NCBI GenBank assembly: GCA_902521655.1
Contig: CABYSM010000002.1
Span: forward strand, 3,575 to 67,574
DNA length: 64,000 nt
Direction of reading: 5' to 3'
Origin: an uncultured Pelagibacteraceae bacterium
Lineage (GTDB): Bacteria > Pseudomonadota > Alphaproteobacteria > Pelagibacterales > AG-422-B15
Position numbers and translations under genes: made by a program. Shown here in pieces: positions 287-39,274 of this stretch; the stretch's first letter is position 1; each line of letters opens with the position of its first letter. Below the pieces are notes generated by a model. The model saw only the letters and a list, made by a program, of their open reading frames with translations. It was not told the origin of the DNA and did not search any database.

Positions 287-712
287 TCAGTGACATGATT
301 CATTGTATTTTTTTAGCCTATAGTAATTATAGGGCAGCGGGGTTACAAACCCTGCTAAGAGCATGAAAGGTATAATAGTAATGGTTAATACACCTCCTGC
401 AAAAATAAGATCTGTTAAATTCATTGAAATCTCCATTGCTACCATGCTAATGAAGCTCATTTTGAAAGCGATATTCAAAGCTTCTGAAAAAGGAAAACTT
501 TTCATTAAAATAAAAGTTTCTAACAAAATACTTGTTACAAGTCCGTTGAATATGGCAATTAGCATCACAAGATAAATTGACAAGGAATGATCTATCATTT
601 GAAAGTAAAATATTGTACCAAAGTCTCCAATACTGCATCCAAGAAGACACCACAAAGTATTGTAGCTTGAAGTCTTCCATGTTGCTTTACAAGTCCAACT
701 AATACTAAGCAT
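287..712 (-). CDS. DUF4396-like membrane protein
   Basis: TLWCLLGCSIGDFG and SFISMVAME motifs, ~4 hydrophobic segments, C-terminal CH. ATG at 712 (MLSISW) preferred over the track start at 748 because it gives a short overlap with the upstream gene. Confidence 0.7.
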   Translation of the reverse strand: MLSISWTCKATWKTSSYNTLWCLLGCSIGDFGTIFYFQMIDHSLSIYLVMLIAIFNGLVTSILLETFILMKSFPFSEALNIAFKMSFISMVAMEISMNLTDLIFAGGVLTITIIPFMLLAGFVTPLPYNYYRLKKYNESCH

Positions 713-911
713 CAATTTTTTTAAATTCCTCTCGTCTTTCATCAGCATCTTTTAGTGCTAAGGCTTTTTCTTCATCGGACATTCTTAGCCAATTAGTGAT
801 TTCAAACTGCTCTCTAAAGCACCCAATACAGACCTTGCCGTCCATAAAAGCCTCATTATACTTACATATTTTGACGCATGGACTATCTACACGTGTTTCT
901 TTTTTAATCAT
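705..911 (-). CDS. DUF1289 family small Cys-rich protein
   Basis: SPCVKIC...CIGCFR...EITNW pattern typical of DUF1289. Confidence 0.8.
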   Translation of the reverse strand: MIKKETRVDSPCVKICKYNEAFMDGKVCIGCFREQFEITNWLRMSDEEKALALKDADERREEFKKIDA

Positions 912-970
912 ATAAAGCTTGATTTATTTATATATTACAATAAAAAGCAACTTCAATTTCAAATAATTAT

Positions 971-1684
971 ATGGCTCGTATTACCGTTGAGGATTGCATA
1001 AAACTTATTAATAATCAGTATGATTTGGTTATTCTTGCTAAAGAAAGAGCAGTTCAATTGGGTAGAGGAGCTACTCCAGCTGTTGACCCTGAAAACGACA
1101 AGAAGCCTGTAATAGCGCTCAGAGAAATCAGTGAATCTAAGATTACAGCCGAAGAGCTAAAAGAAAGTATTGTTTCTAAACTAAGACAGATTCCAGATTA
1201 TGAAGAAGAAGAGGAATTAGAGGAAGTGGATAATGATACGTTTAGACAGATGTATCAAGGCGGATTGTCCAAATCAGAAATGGAAAAATCTGCAACACGT
1301 AAATTTACTGCAAGATCCCCTAGAGTTGAAACGAGAGCTAAGCCAATTGAAGATATGGTAAGTGATGATGAGGCCTCACCTTTGAGTTCAGCGGGTATAA
1401 ATGAAACCCCAGATCTTAATGAAACCCCAGATCTTAATGAGACTCAGGATGTATTAGATACATCAGAAGTTGAATCTCCAATTATGGAAGGTATTGAAAC
1501 AGCTCACGAGGAAACAACTGATCAAACTACAGTTGATCCAATTGAGGAAAACCAACCTTCTGAAGAAGAAAGTTTTGCTGCAAGTGATCAGCTAGAAGAT
1601 AACAATGAAAATGAAGTTATTAATGTTGAAGAGTTGCCTGAAGTTACATCTGACATTGAAGAAGACAATCCTCCTAAAGAATAA
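971..1684 (+). CDS. rpoZ: RNA polymerase omega subunit with long acidic C-terminal extension
   Basis: MARITVEDC...YDLVILAKERA...NDKKPVIALREI is alphaproteobacterial RpoZ; followed by ~160 aa of mostly D/E-rich low-complexity sequence. Confidence 0.9.
   Translation: MARITVEDCIKLINNQYDLVILAKERAVQLGRGATPAVDPENDKKPVIALREISESKITAEELKESIVSKLRQIPDYEEEEELEEVDNDTFRQMYQGGLSKSEMEKSATRKFTARSPRVETRAKPIEDMVSDDEASPLSSAGINETPDLNETPDLNETQDVLDTSEVESPIMEGIETAHEETTDQTTVDPIEENQPSEEESFAASDQLEDNNENEVINVEELPEVTSDIEEDNPPKE
1400..1453 (+). repeat. 18-bp in-frame tandem repeat (two exact copies plus one degenerate) in the rpoZ tail
   Basis: aatgaaaccccagatctt twice, then aatgagactcaggatgta; encodes NETPDL-NETPDL-NETQDV. 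Confidence 0.9.
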
Positions 1685-1689
1685 TTACC

Positions 1690-2820
1690 ATGAACTTTGA
1701 CTTTTCAGATGATCAAAAGCTTTTGCGCGATCAAGCTAGAAAGTTTTTACAAGATAAATGCGACCGTAAGTCTGTAAGAAGTATTCTAGAAGATAATCAG
1801 AAAAACTATGATGCTGATCTTTGGTCTCAAATTTCTGAATTAGGTTGGACTGGTACTGCAATACCTGAAGAATATGGAGGACTTGGTCTAGGTATGTTGG
1901 AATTGTGTGTAATAGCTGAAGAGCTAGGCAGAGCTCTTGCGCCTACACCATTTTCTTCTTCGATATATATCTTTGCTGAATTTTTAAAATCGTATGGTAC
2001 GGATGAACAAAAGAAAAAATATTTACCACACATTGCATCTGGTGAAAAAATTGGGACATTTGCTTTATCAGAAACTAATGGGAAACCAAAACCCAACAAT
2101 ATCAGGACACAGCATGCTTCAGGTAAATTAAATGGATCTAAAAATCCCGTTTCTGATGGAGAGTCAGCAGACTATATCATTGTTGCAGCAAATTCTGACA
2201 GTAACTCAAATTATAATTCTCTCTCACTTTTTATTATTGATAGAAATGATCCAGGCTTAAATATTTCAAACTTAGACACCATCGATCCCACGAGACCAGC
2301 TTGCACATTAGATTTGAAAAATGTTGCATGTGAAAGACTCGGAGACGAAGGAAGTGGCTGGGAGATGATTGATAATATTTTTAATAGAGCAGCTGTTTTA
2401 TTCTCTTTCGAGCAAGTGGGTGGGGCACAAGTCTCACTTGATGAAGCAAAAAAATATTCACTTGAGCGATTCGCTTTTGGAAAGCAGATAGGTGCTTTTC
2501 AAGCTTTAAAGCATAAGATGGCGGACATGTACGTCAAAATTGAATTAGCAAGATCTAATGCCTACTATGGTGCCTGGGCACTAAGCACAGATTCAAATGA
2601 ATTGCCAATTGCCGCTGCTGGTGCAAGAGTGAGTGCCTCGGAAGCTTACAATTACGCGTCTCAGGAAAATATTCAAATACATGGAGGTGTTGGTTTTACT
2701 TGGGAATATGATTGCCACTTGTTTTATCGTAGATCCAAACTACTTTCTTTAAATATTGGTAGTATTCGTCAGTGGAAAGAAAATTTAATTTCAAATCTTG
2801 AAAAAAGGAATATAGTTTAA
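1690..2820 (+). CDS. acyl-CoA dehydrogenase family protein (short partner subunit)
   Basis: IPEEYGGLG, RFAFGKQIGAFQALKHKMADM, IQIHGGVGFTWEY. Confidence 0.9.
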   Translation: MNFDFSDDQKLLRDQARKFLQDKCDRKSVRSILEDNQKNYDADLWSQISELGWTGTAIPEEYGGLGLGMLELCVIAEELGRALAPTPFSSSIYIFAEFLKSYGTDEQKKKYLPHIASGEKIGTFALSETNGKPKPNNIRTQHASGKLNGSKNPVSDGESADYIIVAANSDSNSNYNSLSLFIIDRNDPGLNISNLDTIDPTRPACTLDLKNVACERLGDEGSGWEMIDNIFNRAAVLFSFEQVGGAQVSLDEAKKYSLERFAFGKQIGAFQALKHKMADMYVKIELARSNAYYGAWALSTDSNELPIAAAGARVSASEAYNYASQENIQIHGGVGFTWEYDCHLFYRRSKLLSLNIGSIRQWKENLISNLEKRNIV

Positions 2821-2822
2821 TA

Positions 2823-4106
2823 ATGGATTTTAACGACACACCTCAAGAAGCTGAATTTAGAAAAAAGGTAAGATCTTTTCTAGAAGCAAATGCAGAAAAA
2901 AGATCTAGTTTAGCTGCAAAGCCAAAGGGCGACTCAGGATCTTCTATTTCAAGTGCTGGAGCACCAGAAACTGTAAAAGGTGAAGATGCTGCAAAGGTAG
3001 CGTTAGACAATGCTAAAGAATGGCAAAGAAAAAAAGCTGATGCTGGATTTGCTGCTATTCTATGGCCAAAGGAATTCGGAGGTTACGGAGGAACACCTAT
3101 AGAGCAAGTTATATATGCTCAAGAAGAACACGACTATTTTGTTCACTCAGGATATTTTGAAATTGGAATAGGCATGCTCGGACCAACGATGATGGCCTGG
3201 GGAAAGGATGAGGACAAAAAAAGATTCCTTCCTAAAATGATTACAGGTGAAGAAATTTGGTGCCAATTATTTTCTGAACCCTCAGCAGGATCAGATTTAG
3301 CTGGTATAAGAATGAAGGCAGAAAAAGATGGTGATGAATGGGTATTAAATGGTCAAAAGGTTTGGACTTCAGGAGCTCATTTTGCCGATTACGGAATGAT
3401 TGTAGCACGATCTGACCCTACTGCCTTAAAACATAAGGGACTTACTTATTTTTATGTTGATATGAAAACATCAGGAATTGAAGCTAAGCCTATTAAACAA
3501 ATTTCTGGTTCAGCTAATTTCAATGAAGTTTTCTTTAATGATGTTCGCATACCTGACAGCCAAAGAATTGGCGCGGAGGGTGACGGTTGGAAAGTATCAC
3601 TTACTACACTAATGAATGAAAGATTAGCGGTAGGGGATCCTCCGGGCTTAGACTTTGATCAAATTTTTGAAGCCTCTAAAGAAATTGAAGTTGAGGATGG
3701 TCTTGCAGTAAAAAATAGTGAAGTAAGACAAAAAATGGCAGACTGGTATATCCAATCGCGCGGTTTGCAATATACTAAATACAGAAGTATGACTGCTTTA
3801 TCAAAAGGCCAAACGCCAGGACCAGAGCTCTCAATAAGCAAATTGGTCACAGCGTCGAAAATGCAAGATGTATCATCTTATGCACTGGATTTAATGGACA
3901 TGTCAGGCATGGTTCACCAAGATCAAAATCCAATTCTTAAAAACTTATTCCAAAACGGTTATTTTTTCTCTGCTGCCATGAGAATTGCTGGTGGTACTGA
4001 CGAAGTTTTAAGAAATATTATTGCGGAGCGAGTTCTAGGGCTACCGCAAGATGAAAGGTCAGATAAAAAACTGCCTTTCAATGAGTTACCGTCTGGTAAA
4101 AACTAA
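2823..4106 (+). CDS. acyl-CoA dehydrogenase family protein (catalytic-type subunit)
   Basis: WCQLFSEPSAGSDLA, NGQKVWTSGA, FNEVFF, TTLMNER, IAGGTDEVLRNIIAERVLGLP. Confidence 0.92.
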   Translation: MDFNDTPQEAEFRKKVRSFLEANAEKRSSLAAKPKGDSGSSISSAGAPETVKGEDAAKVALDNAKEWQRKKADAGFAAILWPKEFGGYGGTPIEQVIYAQEEHDYFVHSGYFEIGIGMLGPTMMAWGKDEDKKRFLPKMITGEEIWCQLFSEPSAGSDLAGIRMKAEKDGDEWVLNGQKVWTSGAHFADYGMIVARSDPTALKHKGLTYFYVDMKTSGIEAKPIKQISGSANFNEVFFNDVRIPDSQRIGAEGDGWKVSLTTLMNERLAVGDPPGLDFDQIFEASKEIEVEDGLAVKNSEVRQKMADWYIQSRGLQYTKYRSMTALSKGQTPGPELSISKLVTASKMQDVSSYALDLMDMSGMVHQDQNPILKNLFQNGYFFSAAMRIAGGTDEVLRNIIAERVLGLPQDERSDKKLPFNELPSGKN

Positions 4107-4116
4107 TATTAGTTAA

Positions 4117-4968
4117 GTGTTCAGTACAATCTTTAGCAATGTCGCATCAGGCGACTTGTTCTTTTCTATTTCCTTATTGATTAGTACAGGCATTTTTGCT
4201 GGTTTTATAGCAGGTCTTTTTGGCATTGGTGGAGGCGTCGTTGTAGTGCCCGCTCTATATTATATTTTTACTCTGGCTGAGGTAGATGAAAGTATAAGAA
4301 TGCACTTAGCAGTTGGAACATCACTTGCAAATATCGTCCCAATATCAATTATTTCTGCAGTAAGCCATGCTAGGAAGTATTCCGTAAATATAGATTTCTT
4401 AAAGTTTATATTTGTTTCAATAATTGTGGGTGTTACTTGCGGCTCTATTGCAGTATCTTATCTAGAGGGAAGCACACTAATTTTGATTTACTCAATAATA
4501 TTACTGTTTGTCGCTGCGCAGTTTTTTTTCTGGCAAGATAAATGGAGATTATCGTCTTCTTTTCCTAAAAATATGACTGGTCATGGACTCGGTTCAGTTA
4601 TTGGATTTCTTTCAGTGATCATTGGAGTAGGTGGCGGGTCAATAAGTATCCCTATACTTAAACTATATAATTTTGAAATTCACAAAGCGATTGGAACAGC
4701 AGCTGGAATTGGGACAATAGTTGCTGTACCTGGAACAATTGGATTTATGATTGCTGGCATACAAAACAATGTCGATTTGCCCTTATCCTTTGGTTATGTA
4801 AGTCTTGTAGGTCTTATATTAATTACACCTATTACGATAATTGGTGCGCCGATTGGAGTTAAGTTTGCCCATTACTTATCAAAAAGTAAGTTAAATCTTC
4901 TCTTTGGAATATTTATCTTGTTTATGTCAATTAGATTCTATTTAGAGTGGTTATCATTAACCAGTTAA
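4117..4968 (+). CDS. TauE/SafE (TSUP) family sulfite exporter-like membrane protein
   Basis: GLFGIGGGVVVVP, AVGTSLA and GVGGGS repeated motifs; ~8 TM segments; GTG start. Confidence 0.85.
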   Translation: MFSTIFSNVASGDLFFSISLLISTGIFAGFIAGLFGIGGGVVVVPALYYIFTLAEVDESIRMHLAVGTSLANIVPISIISAVSHARKYSVNIDFLKFIFVSIIVGVTCGSIAVSYLEGSTLILIYSIILLFVAAQFFFWQDKWRLSSSFPKNMTGHGLGSVIGFLSVIIGVGGGSISIPILKLYNFEIHKAIGTAAGIGTIVAVPGTIGFMIAGIQNNVDLPLSFGYVSLVGLILITPITIIGAPIGVKFAHYLSKSKLNLLFGIFILFMSIRFYLEWLSLTS

Positions 4969-36577: not shown

Positions 36578-37270
36578 ATGAAAGTATTAATGCTAAATCC
36601 CGGAGATCACGTAGCCATATCATTTTGGTTAATCTCTATGGCCATGGTTGCAGCTACAGCTTTCTTCTTTCTTGAAAGAGACAGAGTAGCAGCTAGATGG
36701 AAGACGTCCCTCACAGTAGCTGGTTTGGTTACTGGTGTTGCGGCGTGGCACTATTTCTACATGAGAGGCGTATGGGTCGCTACTGGTGACTCTCCAACAG
36801 TCCTTCGATACATTGACTGGTTGATCACTGTGCCTCTACAAATTGTAGAGTTCTATGTAATTCTTGCGGCAATGACTGCTGTTGCTTCAGGCTTATTCTG
36901 GAGACTGTTAATCGCATCTATCGTGATGTTGGTTGGTGGTTATCTAGGTGAAGTTGGAGCGATGAATGTAACACTAGCCTTCGTTATAGGAATGGCTGGA
37001 TGGTTATACATCATCTATGAGATTTTTGCAGGAGAAGCAAGCAAGGCAAGTGCTGGTAGTGGAAACGCTGCTGGTCAAGCTGCGTTTAACGCGTTGAGAT
37101 TGATCGTTACAGTAGGATGGGCGATTTATCCAATAGGTTATGCAGTAGGTTACTTTGGTGGCGGCGTAGATGCTGGTTCACTGAACTTAATCTATAACCT
37201 TGCTGACTTTGTTAACAAAATTGCATTTGGTATGGCTATTTATGTAGCTGCAGTATCAGACAGCAATTAA
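36578..37270 (+). CDS. proteorhodopsin, DTE proton pump with Gln at the spectral tuning site (blue-absorbing)
   Basis: 7 TM; RYIDWLITVPLQIVEF (D, T, Q105-equivalent, E); HY in helix B; DFVNK retinal lysine; aagggga RBS. Confidence 0.96.
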   Translation: MKVLMLNPGDHVAISFWLISMAMVAATAFFFLERDRVAARWKTSLTVAGLVTGVAAWHYFYMRGVWVATGDSPTVLRYIDWLITVPLQIVEFYVILAAMTAVASGLFWRLLIASIVMLVGGYLGEVGAMNVTLAFVIGMAGWLYIIYEIFAGEASKASAGSGNAAGQAAFNALRLIVTVGWAIYPIGYAVGYFGGGVDAGSLNLIYNLADFVNKIAFGMAIYVAAVSDSN

Positions 37271-37290: not shown

Positions 37291-37319
37291 AAAAGGGGCC
37301 TTCGGGCCCCTTTTTTTTT
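37291..37319 (+). terminator. intrinsic terminator after proteorhodopsin
   Basis: aaaaggggcc-TTCG-ggcccc followed by a 9-T run. Confidence 0.9.
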
Positions 37320-37378: not shown

Positions 37379-37466
37379 GGCCTCATGGCGGAATTGGTAG
37401 ACGCAAAGGACTTAAAATCCTTTGGGATTTATTCCCGTCCCGGTTCGAGTCCGGGTGAGGCCACCA
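37379..37466 (+). tRNA. tRNA-Leu(TAA)
   Basis: GGCCTCA/TGAGGCC acceptor, aaagga-ctTAAaa-tccttt anticodon arm, long variable arm, GTTCGAG, encoded CCA. Confidence 0.96.
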
Positions 37467-37522: not shown

Positions 37523-38410
37523 ATGAGAAATTTTAAGGCTTATATTTACTCAATCTTTGCTATTTTTTTGTTAATTGGGATTTCAAATGCCTCTAATTTG
37601 GAAAATAGAGTTACTTCATATTTTAATGGCTTAGCTAATAGTTTAGGCACAAGTGTTTCATCATTATTGAGTGAAAATAGTAGGGTGAAGTACCTCGATT
37701 TAAACGTAGGTGTGCAAGAGCATTTAAAGCCAACTATATCTCTTACGAATGTAAATATGATATCAGAGTACGGCAATAGCGCTATTTTTAATCAAAACTC
37801 TCTTAATCTACATAATAATGATCAAACAATTAATCTAGGCATAGGACACAGAACTCTTCTAAACGACGATAAAGTTATATTTGGATTAAATATATTTTTT
37901 GATTATGCATTTGATGACTCACATCAGAGAAATGGAGCGGGCCTTGAGGTTATAAGTAGTGTTTTTGATTTGAGATCTAATATTTATGACGCCACATCTG
38001 GCATCGAAACAGTTTCGACAGGTAAAGATGAAGAGGCGATGGACGGATGGGACGCACGTCTTGATTATCATTTGCCAATTAAAGCAAATGCAAGACTATT
38101 TGTAGGATTATTTGAATTTGAAAATGCCGCAGGTTCATTTGAAGTTGAAGGTGAAAAATATGGTCTAAATCTAATTAGTAATAATCTTGATTTAGAAGTT
38201 GGATATATCGATGACAACAAAACAGGTGATGGTTCATTTGCAAATCTAAGTTATGTGATACCTCTTGGTAGTAATGGTTCTTTTTCCAATAACTCTTCTA
38301 ATTATTTTGAGTACGTATCTGTCGCTGATAGGATGTATGAACCTGTTAAAAGAGAAAATAAGATAAAAGTTGTAACAACAACATTAAATGTTAAGGCAAG
38401 TGGATTCTAG
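37523..38410 (+). CDS. inverse autotransporter (intimin/invasin-type) beta-barrel domain protein lacking a passenger
   Basis: Signal peptide; TINLGIGHR, FGLNIFFDY, HQRNGAGLE, DLRSNIY, EEAMDGWD and the ..MYEPVKRENKI linker motif; ends ~13 aa after the linker. Confidence 0.78.
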   Translation: MRNFKAYIYSIFAIFLLIGISNASNLENRVTSYFNGLANSLGTSVSSLLSENSRVKYLDLNVGVQEHLKPTISLTNVNMISEYGNSAIFNQNSLNLHNNDQTINLGIGHRTLLNDDKVIFGLNIFFDYAFDDSHQRNGAGLEVISSVFDLRSNIYDATSGIETVSTGKDEEAMDGWDARLDYHLPIKANARLFVGLFEFENAAGSFEVEGEKYGLNLISNNLDLEVGYIDDNKTGDGSFANLSYVIPLGSNGSFSNNSSNYFEYVSVADRMYEPVKRENKIKVVTTTLNVKASGF

Positions 38411-38413
38411 ATT

Positions 38414-39274
38414 ATGAATTATCATTTTAAAAAAATCTTTTTATTATCAATTCTATCTTTTTTTGCATCTATTACACTTTCAGCTGCAGATAGTCATGTT
38501 ACAGAATGCACTATAACTGGTGGTATTTTTGATAAAACGCAACCAATTGATAATGGCTATTGTGCGAGTGCGCCAAATACTTATGAAGTTATTGCTTATG
38601 AGATGTATCTTTGTACGGCAGAGCCTTCAGCCCCTACAACTTCATCTGTAATGGGACTAGGCAATTGCTTCAAAAATTGGGAGTCCCCATCAGGTGCTAG
38701 ATTATCTGTTGAACAAAATAAGACAATAGATGTTCCAGGTATCATGTCGAGACCTCCAAATGGAACATATACTCATGGTGTAATGACTATTGATAATACT
38801 TTCGGTATTACAATGGCAATGCAGTTTGATGAGGCTGTAACTGGACAAGATGGTACATCAGGTATTTATTGTGCCTCTGTTGCCGGTAGTGGAAATTATG
38901 GTTCATCAAATACTAGACCTTCTGCCAGCTCTACATGTGGATCATCAGCAATAACTCCAGGAAAATTTGTAGAAACTCTGACAAGTTTCGATGATACCTT
39001 CAATCCAAATGTAACTGCTACTAATTTAAACGGAACCTCTGCTTCAATAACCGGTTTCTTAATTGATACAAATGGTTACTTAGCTGAAAATGACGCTGAT
39101 GTTGATAAGCTAACGGGTTCCTTATCTTTCTCAACTCCTGTTAATTTTACAGACTCTACAACTACTCTAATGATGTCGTTTAATGTCGGTGAAGGCATGT
39201 CTTTATATAATGATGGATCAAACCAATTAACTTTTGGAAGCGGGCCGTTTCAGGCAATAATTTCTACTGATTAG
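38414..39274 (+). CDS. secreted hypothetical protein, Ser/Thr/Gly-rich, 6 Cys
   Basis: Sec signal peptide (MNYHFKKIFLLSILSFFASITLSA), beta-strand-like alternation; 3 nt after the barrel gene. Confidence 0.75.
   Translation: MNYHFKKIFLLSILSFFASITLSAADSHVTECTITGGIFDKTQPIDNGYCASAPNTYEVIAYEMYLCTAEPSAPTTSSVMGLGNCFKNWESPSGARLSVEQNKTIDVPGIMSRPPNGTYTHGVMTIDNTFGITMAMQFDEAVTGQDGTSGIYCASVAGSGNYGSSNTRPSASSTCGSSAITPGKFVETLTSFDDTFNPNVTATNLNGTSASITGFLIDTNGYLAENDADVDKLTGSLSFSTPVNFTDSTTTLMMSFNVGEGMSLYNDGSNQLTFGSGPFQAIISTD

Follow-up and report, generated by a model that had tools for sequence, protein, structure and literature searches.

Intimin and invasin are the canonical members of the inverse autotransporters (type Ve secretion systems), which are treated in their one-chain form only in a 2019 review (PMC6555100) and in a 2026 review (PMC13721041). 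Split forms have also been described. According to the parts of the following papers that are available, the secretion of ZirS in Salmonella is ZirT-dependent (Gal-Mor et al. 2008, PMC2270342) and the IatB and SinH loci are analogous (Goh et al. 2019, PMC6714894). The term 'two-partner inverse autotransporters' was coined by Heinz et al. (2016, PMC4943183), in whose available text the barrels retain immunoglobulin-like (Ig-like) domains and the family is almost restricted to the Gammaproteobacteria. The intimin/invasin homologues of alpha-proteobacteria, cyanobacteria and chlorobi were described by Tsai et al. (2010, PMC3008723) as consisting of the barrel only. In the available part of that paper their functions are called 'completely unknown', the translocation or anchoring of non-covalent passengers is suggested, and the genome context is said to be uninformative on the function of most short members. 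The subject of the present analysis is a pair of open reading frames (ORFs), ORF1 and ORF2, located in a 64-kb window, i.e., the whole stretch of 64,000 nucleotides taken from contig CABYSM010000002.1 of an uncultured Pelagibacteraceae bacterium (assembly GCA_902521655.1). ORF1 encodes a passenger-less inverse-autotransporter barrel and ORF2 a separately exported partner. Together they constitute a real and conserved two-gene envelope module that occurs across phyla and in which the linkage of the two genes is obligatory.

The coordinates of the features are collected in Table 1. ORF1 is a complete but passenger-less type Ve beta-domain and belongs to the family of inverse autotransporters, as had been proposed in the preliminary description of this DNA. 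The protein matches the Pfam family PF11924 (IAT_beta) with an E value of 3.3e-29 (102.8 bits, cut-off 22.3), and its residues 38-279 align with positions 31-279 of the 279-position profile. A profile of 30 ORF1-like barrels covers the full length of two crystallised beta-domains, that of invasin (4E1T, E 1e-24) and that of intimin (4E1S, E 1e-20). Both crystallised constructs end at the motif equivalent to V275-K-R-E-N-K-I-K-V-V284 of ORF1, in which V275, R277 and N279 are invariant across the 30 barrels. Their counterparts in intimin belong to the linker that traverses the pore and to the outer beta-sheet, and the next strand pairs with loops 4 and 5 outside (available part of PMC13078405).

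The content of ORF1 is thereby that of a barrel, a pore linker and a surface strand, after which the chain continues for just 11 residues (given as about 13 in the preliminary description) and terminates 16 residues beyond the end of the IAT_beta match. Neither the sequence nor a Pfam scan revealed a passenger in ORF1, be it an Ig-like, Big or fibronectin domain, and no LysM domain is present. The AlphaFold2 model of ORF1 has a mean predicted local distance difference test score (pLDDT) of 73.3. It contains a low-confidence helix (residues 23-49) ahead of the barrel, twelve predicted strands of 10-15 residues with block pLDDT values mostly of 75-92 and, after the barrel, a short helix (268-272) and a strand (283-286).

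ORF2 starts 3 nt downstream and, in agreement with the preliminary description, has 286 residues, six cysteines and an N-terminal hydrophobic helix of its own. In the AlphaFold2 model (pLDDT 92.3, predicted template modelling score 0.84), the signal-peptide helix (residues 3-20) is followed by 17 strands in an all-beta arrangement, and residues 22-27 have a pLDDT below 50. The six cysteines (C32, C50, C67, C85, C153 and C175) are each conserved in at least 90% of 100 homologues and form three close pairs with a spacing of 18-22 residues. DsbA homologues are present in the genome, whose assembly comprises 43 contigs and 1.0 Mb and is 76% complete. On the strength of the predicted structure, ORF2 appears to be a secreted, disulfide-bonded all-beta protein of a seemingly undescribed family.

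The searches with ORF2 gave no Pfam match, no meaningful NCBIfam match and no PADLOC match, and the Pfam scans of 100 members of its family, run individually, produced isolated matches at chance level only. The feature matches in the ESM Atlas are clusters without a name, and two leads suggested by them, DUF3060 (0.92) and DUF4382 (0.90), were set aside, since the scans of the 100 members do not support them. Sequence-profile searches of the PDB with the partner profiles A1, A3 and A4 found nothing. The ORF2 family comprises 477 clusters at 90% identity and 358 clusters at 50% identity (E<=1e-3). Among the best 150 of the 358 representatives, the full-length members have about 260-380 residues and the shorter matches are partial proteins. 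The partners belong to one superfamily with three types: the hhalign comparison of their profiles gave 98.6% for A1-A3 (E 1e-15), 99.8% for A3-A4 (E 5e-30) and 86% for A1-A4, the latter in the N-terminal part. The only long protein among the same best 150 of 358 is P0368, with 705 residues, which contains a signal peptide, three cadherin-like domains (PF12733) and a C-terminal partner domain, and no barrel. The upstream DNA of its locus (L169) ends at the contig edge.

The linkage between the two genes was surveyed from both sides. Of 151 Pelagibacterales genomes sampled, 67 contain IAT_beta and 42 contain ORF2-like genes, and all the IAT_beta matches fall in open frames of at most 513 residues. 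The next gene downstream, on the same strand, belongs to the partner superfamily for 76 of the 78 barrel ORFs, and the remaining two are a barrel truncated at a contig end and a chimeric remnant (L052, described below). The gap between barrel and partner lies within -47 to +14 nt in 75 of the 76 pairs. Scanning from the partner side, with one genome per species, yielded 80 loci. A barrel stands directly upstream in 74 of these, five are located at contig ends, and in the last one (L161) a second partner lies immediately upstream and the barrel heads both. ORF2 homologues living independently of barrels, which the preliminary description had named as a ground for refuting its reading, were not encountered: wherever the flanking DNA allowed the check, none was found apart from an inverse-autotransporter barrel.

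The pair extends beyond the Pelagibacterales. IAT_beta has a patchy distribution in Prochlorococcus (32 of 121 sampled genomes, in frames of 357-407 residues), and a partner gene follows 22 of 22 barrels in the 20 loci fetched. In picocyanobacteria of 52% and 61% GC, the GC content of the pair is that of its host, which indicates that it is resident and not a contamination of single-cell assemblies. Among 301 genomes sampled, 31 have any IAT_beta match, and the pair is present in four of these, which are other alpha-proteobacteria; it was also found in one SAR116 and one Rhodobacteraceae assembly. A single Methylophilaceae genome of 101 (L156/G823, 1.1 Mb) contains two barrels and three partner genes. 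This case may be due to gene transfer or to a mixed or contaminated single-cell assembly, and it is considered doubtful and excluded from the range. The partner A1 profile found no match in a phylum-level sample of 400 other genomes, and no copy of the module was found in the phage records and viral contigs searched.

Adjacency, strand and spacing thus persist past a barrel divergence to below 30% identity, and in three partner subtypes, different genomic sites and two phyla. Because the pair is conserved, chance adjacency is excluded as its origin, and very little credit is left for the view that ORF1 and ORF2 are unrelated envelope genes that happen to be neighbours, which the surveys contradict.

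Several loci depart from the simple two-gene layout. In a SAR11 relative, L085 (G116:C1:1-5500), the barrel gene (2141-3544, minus strand) includes two Big_12 repeats (Big_12 E 5e-22), and two ORF2-family genes come after it in tandem (1227-2141 and 309-1208, minus strand). Three barrel-partner modules stand in tandem in the Prochlorococcus locus L185 (G846:C1:200500-209500), and one barrel is followed by two partner paralogues in L184 and L161 of the same genus. The 16-kb locus L036 (G049:C1:962000-978000) contains two barrels, five full-length partner genes and one short partner-like fragment. Two of its partner genes lie upstream of a barrel, and the cluster also encodes DUF2860-like and FecR-domain proteins. 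At their C-terminus, several of the L036 partners and one in L035 have an additional motif of basic character (K-x-K-R-R-R-G-A-W-R or similar). In L052 (G011:C1:993500-1000000), an ORF of 270 residues (3936-4748, minus strand) begins as the N-terminal half of a barrel, continues as the C-terminal half of a type-B partner and looks like a deletion remnant of the module.

The junction between the two genes reads TAG ATT ATG, with a 3-nt gap, and both ORFs lie on the same strand and in the same frame. The shared frame across TAG ATT would be expected if a single inverse autotransporter had been split by a recent nonsense mutation, by a read-through stop or by an assembly error. The other observations contradict such an origin. 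Of the 401 ORF1 relatives at E<=1e-3, the 120 listed all have 280-307 residues (82-99% identity). The split extends over two phyla, each of the partner alleles observed begins with a start of its own and a hydrophobic N-terminus or signal peptide, and no fused, longer form of ORF2 was found, the last point being weak evidence. Pairs that share a frame account for 27 of 76 only; read-through of the in-frame TAG was rejected with the 49 out-of-frame pairs. Moreover, the pairwise ratio of non-synonymous to synonymous substitution rates (dN/dS) is close to 0.1 in both genes (barrel about 0.08, partner about 0.11), and both are under purifying selection. A broken gene or an artefact is consequently regarded as practically dismissed, and the split is stable and ancient.

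The two halves of the module differ in their variability: the barrel is the constant half and the partner the variable one. At the tRNA-Leu locus of 23 species, the barrels are 86-98% identical to ORF1 in 22 species and 65% in one, and the partners fall into identity classes of about 94, 83-84, 72-75 and 65-68%. Several genomes pair a barrel of 96-98% identity with a partner of 66-68%. In the comparison with locus L013, the end of the rhodopsin gene, the tRNA and the barrel show 94-99% nucleotide identity, against 61-69% over most of ORF2 (38401-39150), and the identity recovers downstream. The synonymous divergence (dS) of the partner reaches 3.0 against 0.09 for the barrel, which argues for old alleles moved by recombination and not for fast drift. 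The most variable part of ORF2, among 21 alleles compared, is the signal peptide (38414-38485).

A recombination break at the start codon of ORF2 (junction 38410-38416) is seen both in genomes and in contigs from RNA libraries. Four metatranscriptome runs, which come from three studies, have contigs over ORF1, and those from X16, X17 and X20 diverge exactly at 38416, the ORF2 start codon, into another partner allele. One X17 contig spans the ORF1-ORF2 junction, and the ORF2 allele of the window is itself represented among the contigs. Discrete old alleles beside a constant barrel are in line with the variable surface antigen envisaged in the preliminary description.

The C-terminal tail of the barrel is the segment that tends to follow the partner. 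Of 144 distinct passenger-less barrels, 142 have 20-25 residues between the V[KR]RxN motif and the C-terminus. The last two residues are G-[FYVN] in 105 of the 144, and the tail pattern, F/L-T/N-V-K-A-G/S-G-F, resembles a strand. A similar tail pattern recurs in the cyanobacterial barrels. When ORF1 is modelled alone, residues 289-295 have a pLDDT below 50 and are disordered. In the relative L085, a Big_12 Ig-like domain begins 12 residues past the same motif and the ORF1 tail aligns with its first strand, so that the tail occupies the position of the first Ig strand of a passenger. Tail class and partner type agree in all cases (37/37, 19/19 and 17/17). In an exploratory mutual-information scan (97 pairs, effective number of sequences 41), the tail ranks first among 20 barrel segments and the C-terminal strand of the partner is among the regions best coupled to it. 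Every partner type terminates in a Pro-x-hydrophobic-x-hydrophobic strand.

The reading preferred here, to which about an even chance is given, is that ORF2 is a non-covalent passenger anchored, and possibly exported, by the barrel, presumably through physical binding, and that the pair is a minimal two-partner type Ve system. In the proposed mechanism, ORF1 would be exported by Sec and assembled through the machinery for beta-barrel assembly (BAM) into a 12-strand intimin-type barrel. Its linker would plug its own pore and emerge outside as a short strand with a fixed-length tail of about 11 residues. ORF2, expressed at a matching level from the tightly coupled gene, would be exported by Sec and would acquire its disulfide-bonded all-beta fold. 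It would then be held at the cell surface by the barrel, with the tail, and perhaps the outer loops, acting as the docking strand. The barrel may also assist ORF2 in crossing the membrane during barrel assembly. The partner would be the exposed variable component and the barrel its constant anchor. The location of ORF2 at the surface, the function of the tail and the route by which ORF2 is exported are putative.

Several considerations weigh against this proposal. The match between tail and partner counts as about two independent events, because barrels and partners co-diverged and the tail classes were defined post hoc; the barrel tree requires just two changes of partner type. Re-pairing within clades retains most of the tail signal in the mutual-information scan (z 0.87 +/- 0.07 against 1.08 observed), and the signal is therefore mainly phylogenetic. 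The ORF1 model, with a moderate pLDDT of 73, was read for secondary structure and confidence only and not for the placement of the linker. If the 12-strand pore is plugged by the linker as in intimin, a folded partner of 260 residues with three likely disulfides cannot traverse it afterwards, and no mechanism is known for the export of a separate chain during barrel assembly. The allele diversity is only an indirect sign of ORF2 being outside the cell. Finally, the RNA libraries argue weakly for expression of the pair, since parts of ORF2 have no contig coverage and contigs with both genes cannot prove a single transcript.

The export background of the host restricts the possible routes. Two genomes from the genus of the window (G002 and G004, 99-100% complete) yielded no secretin (PF00263); two sister-family genomes (G049 and G069) have one each. 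In the five genomes searched, TamB was not found and a single Omp85 is present in each. The inverse-autotransporter barrels of these genomes must consequently be assembled without the module for translocation and assembly (TAM), which is involved in the assembly of E. coli intimin and FdeC according to the available part of PMC4943183. With no secretin, no TamB and a single Omp85, BAM and the ORF1 barrel are the only visible route if the partner is located outside.

The same background is compatible with a partner that never leaves the periplasm. ORF2 could bind the periplasmic face of the barrel or its N-terminal helix (residues ~24-50) and function as an accessory, plug-regulating or envelope-structural factor, with no display at the surface. 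ORF2 has a Sec signal only, with no recognisable outer-membrane or lipoprotein signal, the pore is expected to be filled by the barrel's own linker, neither a secretin nor TAM is available in the genus, and the N-terminal helical segment is conserved in ORF1-type barrels. The C-terminal domains of ZirT-like proteins are also placed in the periplasm, as a proposal, in the available text of Heinz et al. (PMC4943183). On the other hand, old recombining alleles beside a constant barrel would be usual in exposed molecules and uncommon in periplasmic ones, and the barrel feature that tracks the partner is the tail, which is extracellular by homology with intimin. One homologue, P0368, has its cadherin-like adhesin domains N-terminal to the partner domain. 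A periplasmic partnership is accordingly judged rather unlikely.

A secretion of the ZirT/ZirS kind would use the barrel differently, with the linker and tail as a reversible plug and ORF2 threaded through the pore and released to sea water. Closely spaced cysteine pairs, such as the three of ORF2, are a pattern tolerated by autotransporter passengers and compatible with threading. A single barrel may also be accompanied by two or more partner genes. The precedents are the dependence of ZirS secretion on ZirT (PMC2270342) and the plug-displacement cycle modelled by Heinz et al. (PMC4943183), both as given in the available parts of these papers. Release to sea water is considered improbable.

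The anchored, non-covalent passenger preferred here can be taken further, in a version that is offered as a tentative possibility. In it, the pair would be a minimal system for surface display shared across phyla, and a bare barrel assembled by BAM only, with neither TAM nor a secretin, would donate its C-terminal strand to a partner without any recognisable relative of solved structure. The partner would be a major variable surface antigen, whose old alleles are kept under frequency-dependent selection by phages or grazers, in SAR11, Prochlorococcus and other picocyanobacteria.

Table 1. Features of the locus, in window coordinates
Feature	Position	Strand	Details
Rhodopsin gene (proteorhodopsin-type)	36578-37270		PF01036, E 2e-46; upstream of the pair
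Terminator-like hairpin	37291..37314	+	10-bp stem with 6 GC pairs, then a T run
tRNA-Leu(taa)	37379..37466	+	ARAGORN and Rfam tRNA; conserved upstream neighbour that lies outside the module
ORF1, passenger-less inverse-autotransporter (type Ve) beta-domain protein	37523..38410	+	295 aa
ORF1 signal peptide	37523..37591	+	residues 1 to ~23; hydrophobic N-terminus, model helix 2-21; cleavage site placed by eye
Predicted 12-strand barrel	37685..38263	+	residues 55-247; AlphaFold2 model and alignment to invasin/intimin barrels
Linker region	38264..38374	+	residues 248-284; helix 268-272, invariant V275/R277/N279, surface strand K280-V284
C-terminal tail, candidate partner-docking strand	38375..38407	+	residues 285-295, T-T-T-L-N-V-K-A-S-G-F
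ORF2, separately exported partner	38414..39274	+	286 aa; unnamed superfamily
ORF2 signal peptide	38414..38485	+	residues 1 to ~24; model helix 3-20; cleavage site placed by eye

The hairpin at 37291-37314 ends the rhodopsin gene, and the gene pair is therefore outside the rhodopsin transcript. Two sub-threshold matches to small RNA families overlap this terminator and are weak and probably due to chance; the tRNA is the sole Rfam match above threshold. A convergent NAD kinase gene begins 2 nt past ORF2, the remaining neighbours are housekeeping genes, and the GC content at the locus is ordinary for the region. The preliminary description had drawn attention to the position of the pair right behind tRNA-Leu. 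The adjacency holds, with no sign of mobility attached to it. The tRNA-Leu stands upstream in 11 of 11 orthologous loci (L003-L013), which makes the position one of conserved synteny and not the scar of a mobile element. An integration site at the tRNA-Leu was thus rejected, given that the 11 loci are syntenic, with flanks 83-99% identical, ordinary GC and housekeeping neighbours. Other copies of the module (eight loci) have a tRNA-Met in two cases (L015 and L018) and no tRNA in six.

The pair represents a natural, widespread and stripped-down split form of type Ve, with a partner family and fold that are uncharacterised. The hosts have tiny genomes with few dispensable genes and some of them carry up to three copies of the module, which is therefore likely to be important to the envelope of these dominant surface-ocean organisms. 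Should the partner be exposed, it would be a candidate target for recognition by phages or grazers, and its allele classes would offer a simple marker of the 'constant diversity' dynamics of SAR11. For the mechanics of secretion, the pair provides a small TAM-free system, with about 270 and 260 mature residues, in which the anchoring or passage of a separate chain by a 12-strand barrel can be addressed. Surface display is a further possible use, for which the bare barrel and its docking tail could provide a compact scaffold.

No description of the partner family, or of the pair in SAR11 or Prochlorococcus, was found in the literature, in which the supplementary tables of Tsai et al. (2010) and Heinz et al. 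(2016) may list the barrels or the operons. The terms 'SAR11' and 'inverse autotransporter' were found together in a single paper, which is on a sponge symbiont, and the terms 'autotransporter' and 'outer membrane' are absent from the available part of the text of a 2025 SAR11 pangenome paper (PMC11796062). The barrel-only intimin homologues, the idea of non-covalent passengers and the two-partner inverse autotransporters are already published. The preliminary description had supposed an undescribed two-gene module. This stands for the partner family, which was not found in print and appears to be new, and does not stand for the bare barrels and the two-partner concept, both present in the available parts of PMC3008723 and PMC4943183.

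The closest known systems include the donor-strand systems, i.e., the chaperone-usher pili and the type V pilins of Bacteroides, and the type Vb systems (TpsB/TpsA, e.g., FhaC/FHA). The latter resemble the present pair in having the transporter and the cargo on separate chains encoded by adjacent genes. They differ in that TpsB, which includes POTRA domains, is an Omp85 barrel of 16 strands and TpsA has a two-partner secretion (TPS) domain, whereas ORF1 belongs to IAT_beta and ORF2 has no TPS domain. With the canonical type Ve proteins, intimin and invasin, ORF1 shares the signal peptide, the N-terminal 12-strand barrel, the V-x-R-x-N linker and the surface strand. Unlike them, it has no Ig-like or lectin passenger on the same chain and no LysM domain, and no TamB was found in five related genomes. 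The passenger-less barrels of Tsai et al. (2010) are probably the same barrels as ORF1; the conserved downstream partner superfamily is not described in the available part of that paper (PMC3008723).

The two-partner inverse autotransporters (ZirT/ZirS/ZirU of Salmonella, SinH/SinI, IatB and Yfr4) share with the present module an operon in which the gene of an inverse-autotransporter barrel is followed by one or more Sec-exported, barrel-less proteins. In them too the barrel has been proposed, in the available parts of PMC2270342, PMC4943183 and PMC6714894, as a platform or translocator for the partner. The difference lies in the immunoglobulin-superfamily domains (Big or fibronectin) of the ZirT-type barrels, which are thought to bind the substrate and are absent from ORF1, whereas a Big_12 domain is present in L085. 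With such a barrel followed by two partners, this SAR11 relative matches the ZirT/ZirS layout and is a possible intermediate between the ZirT-like and the bare-barrel modules.

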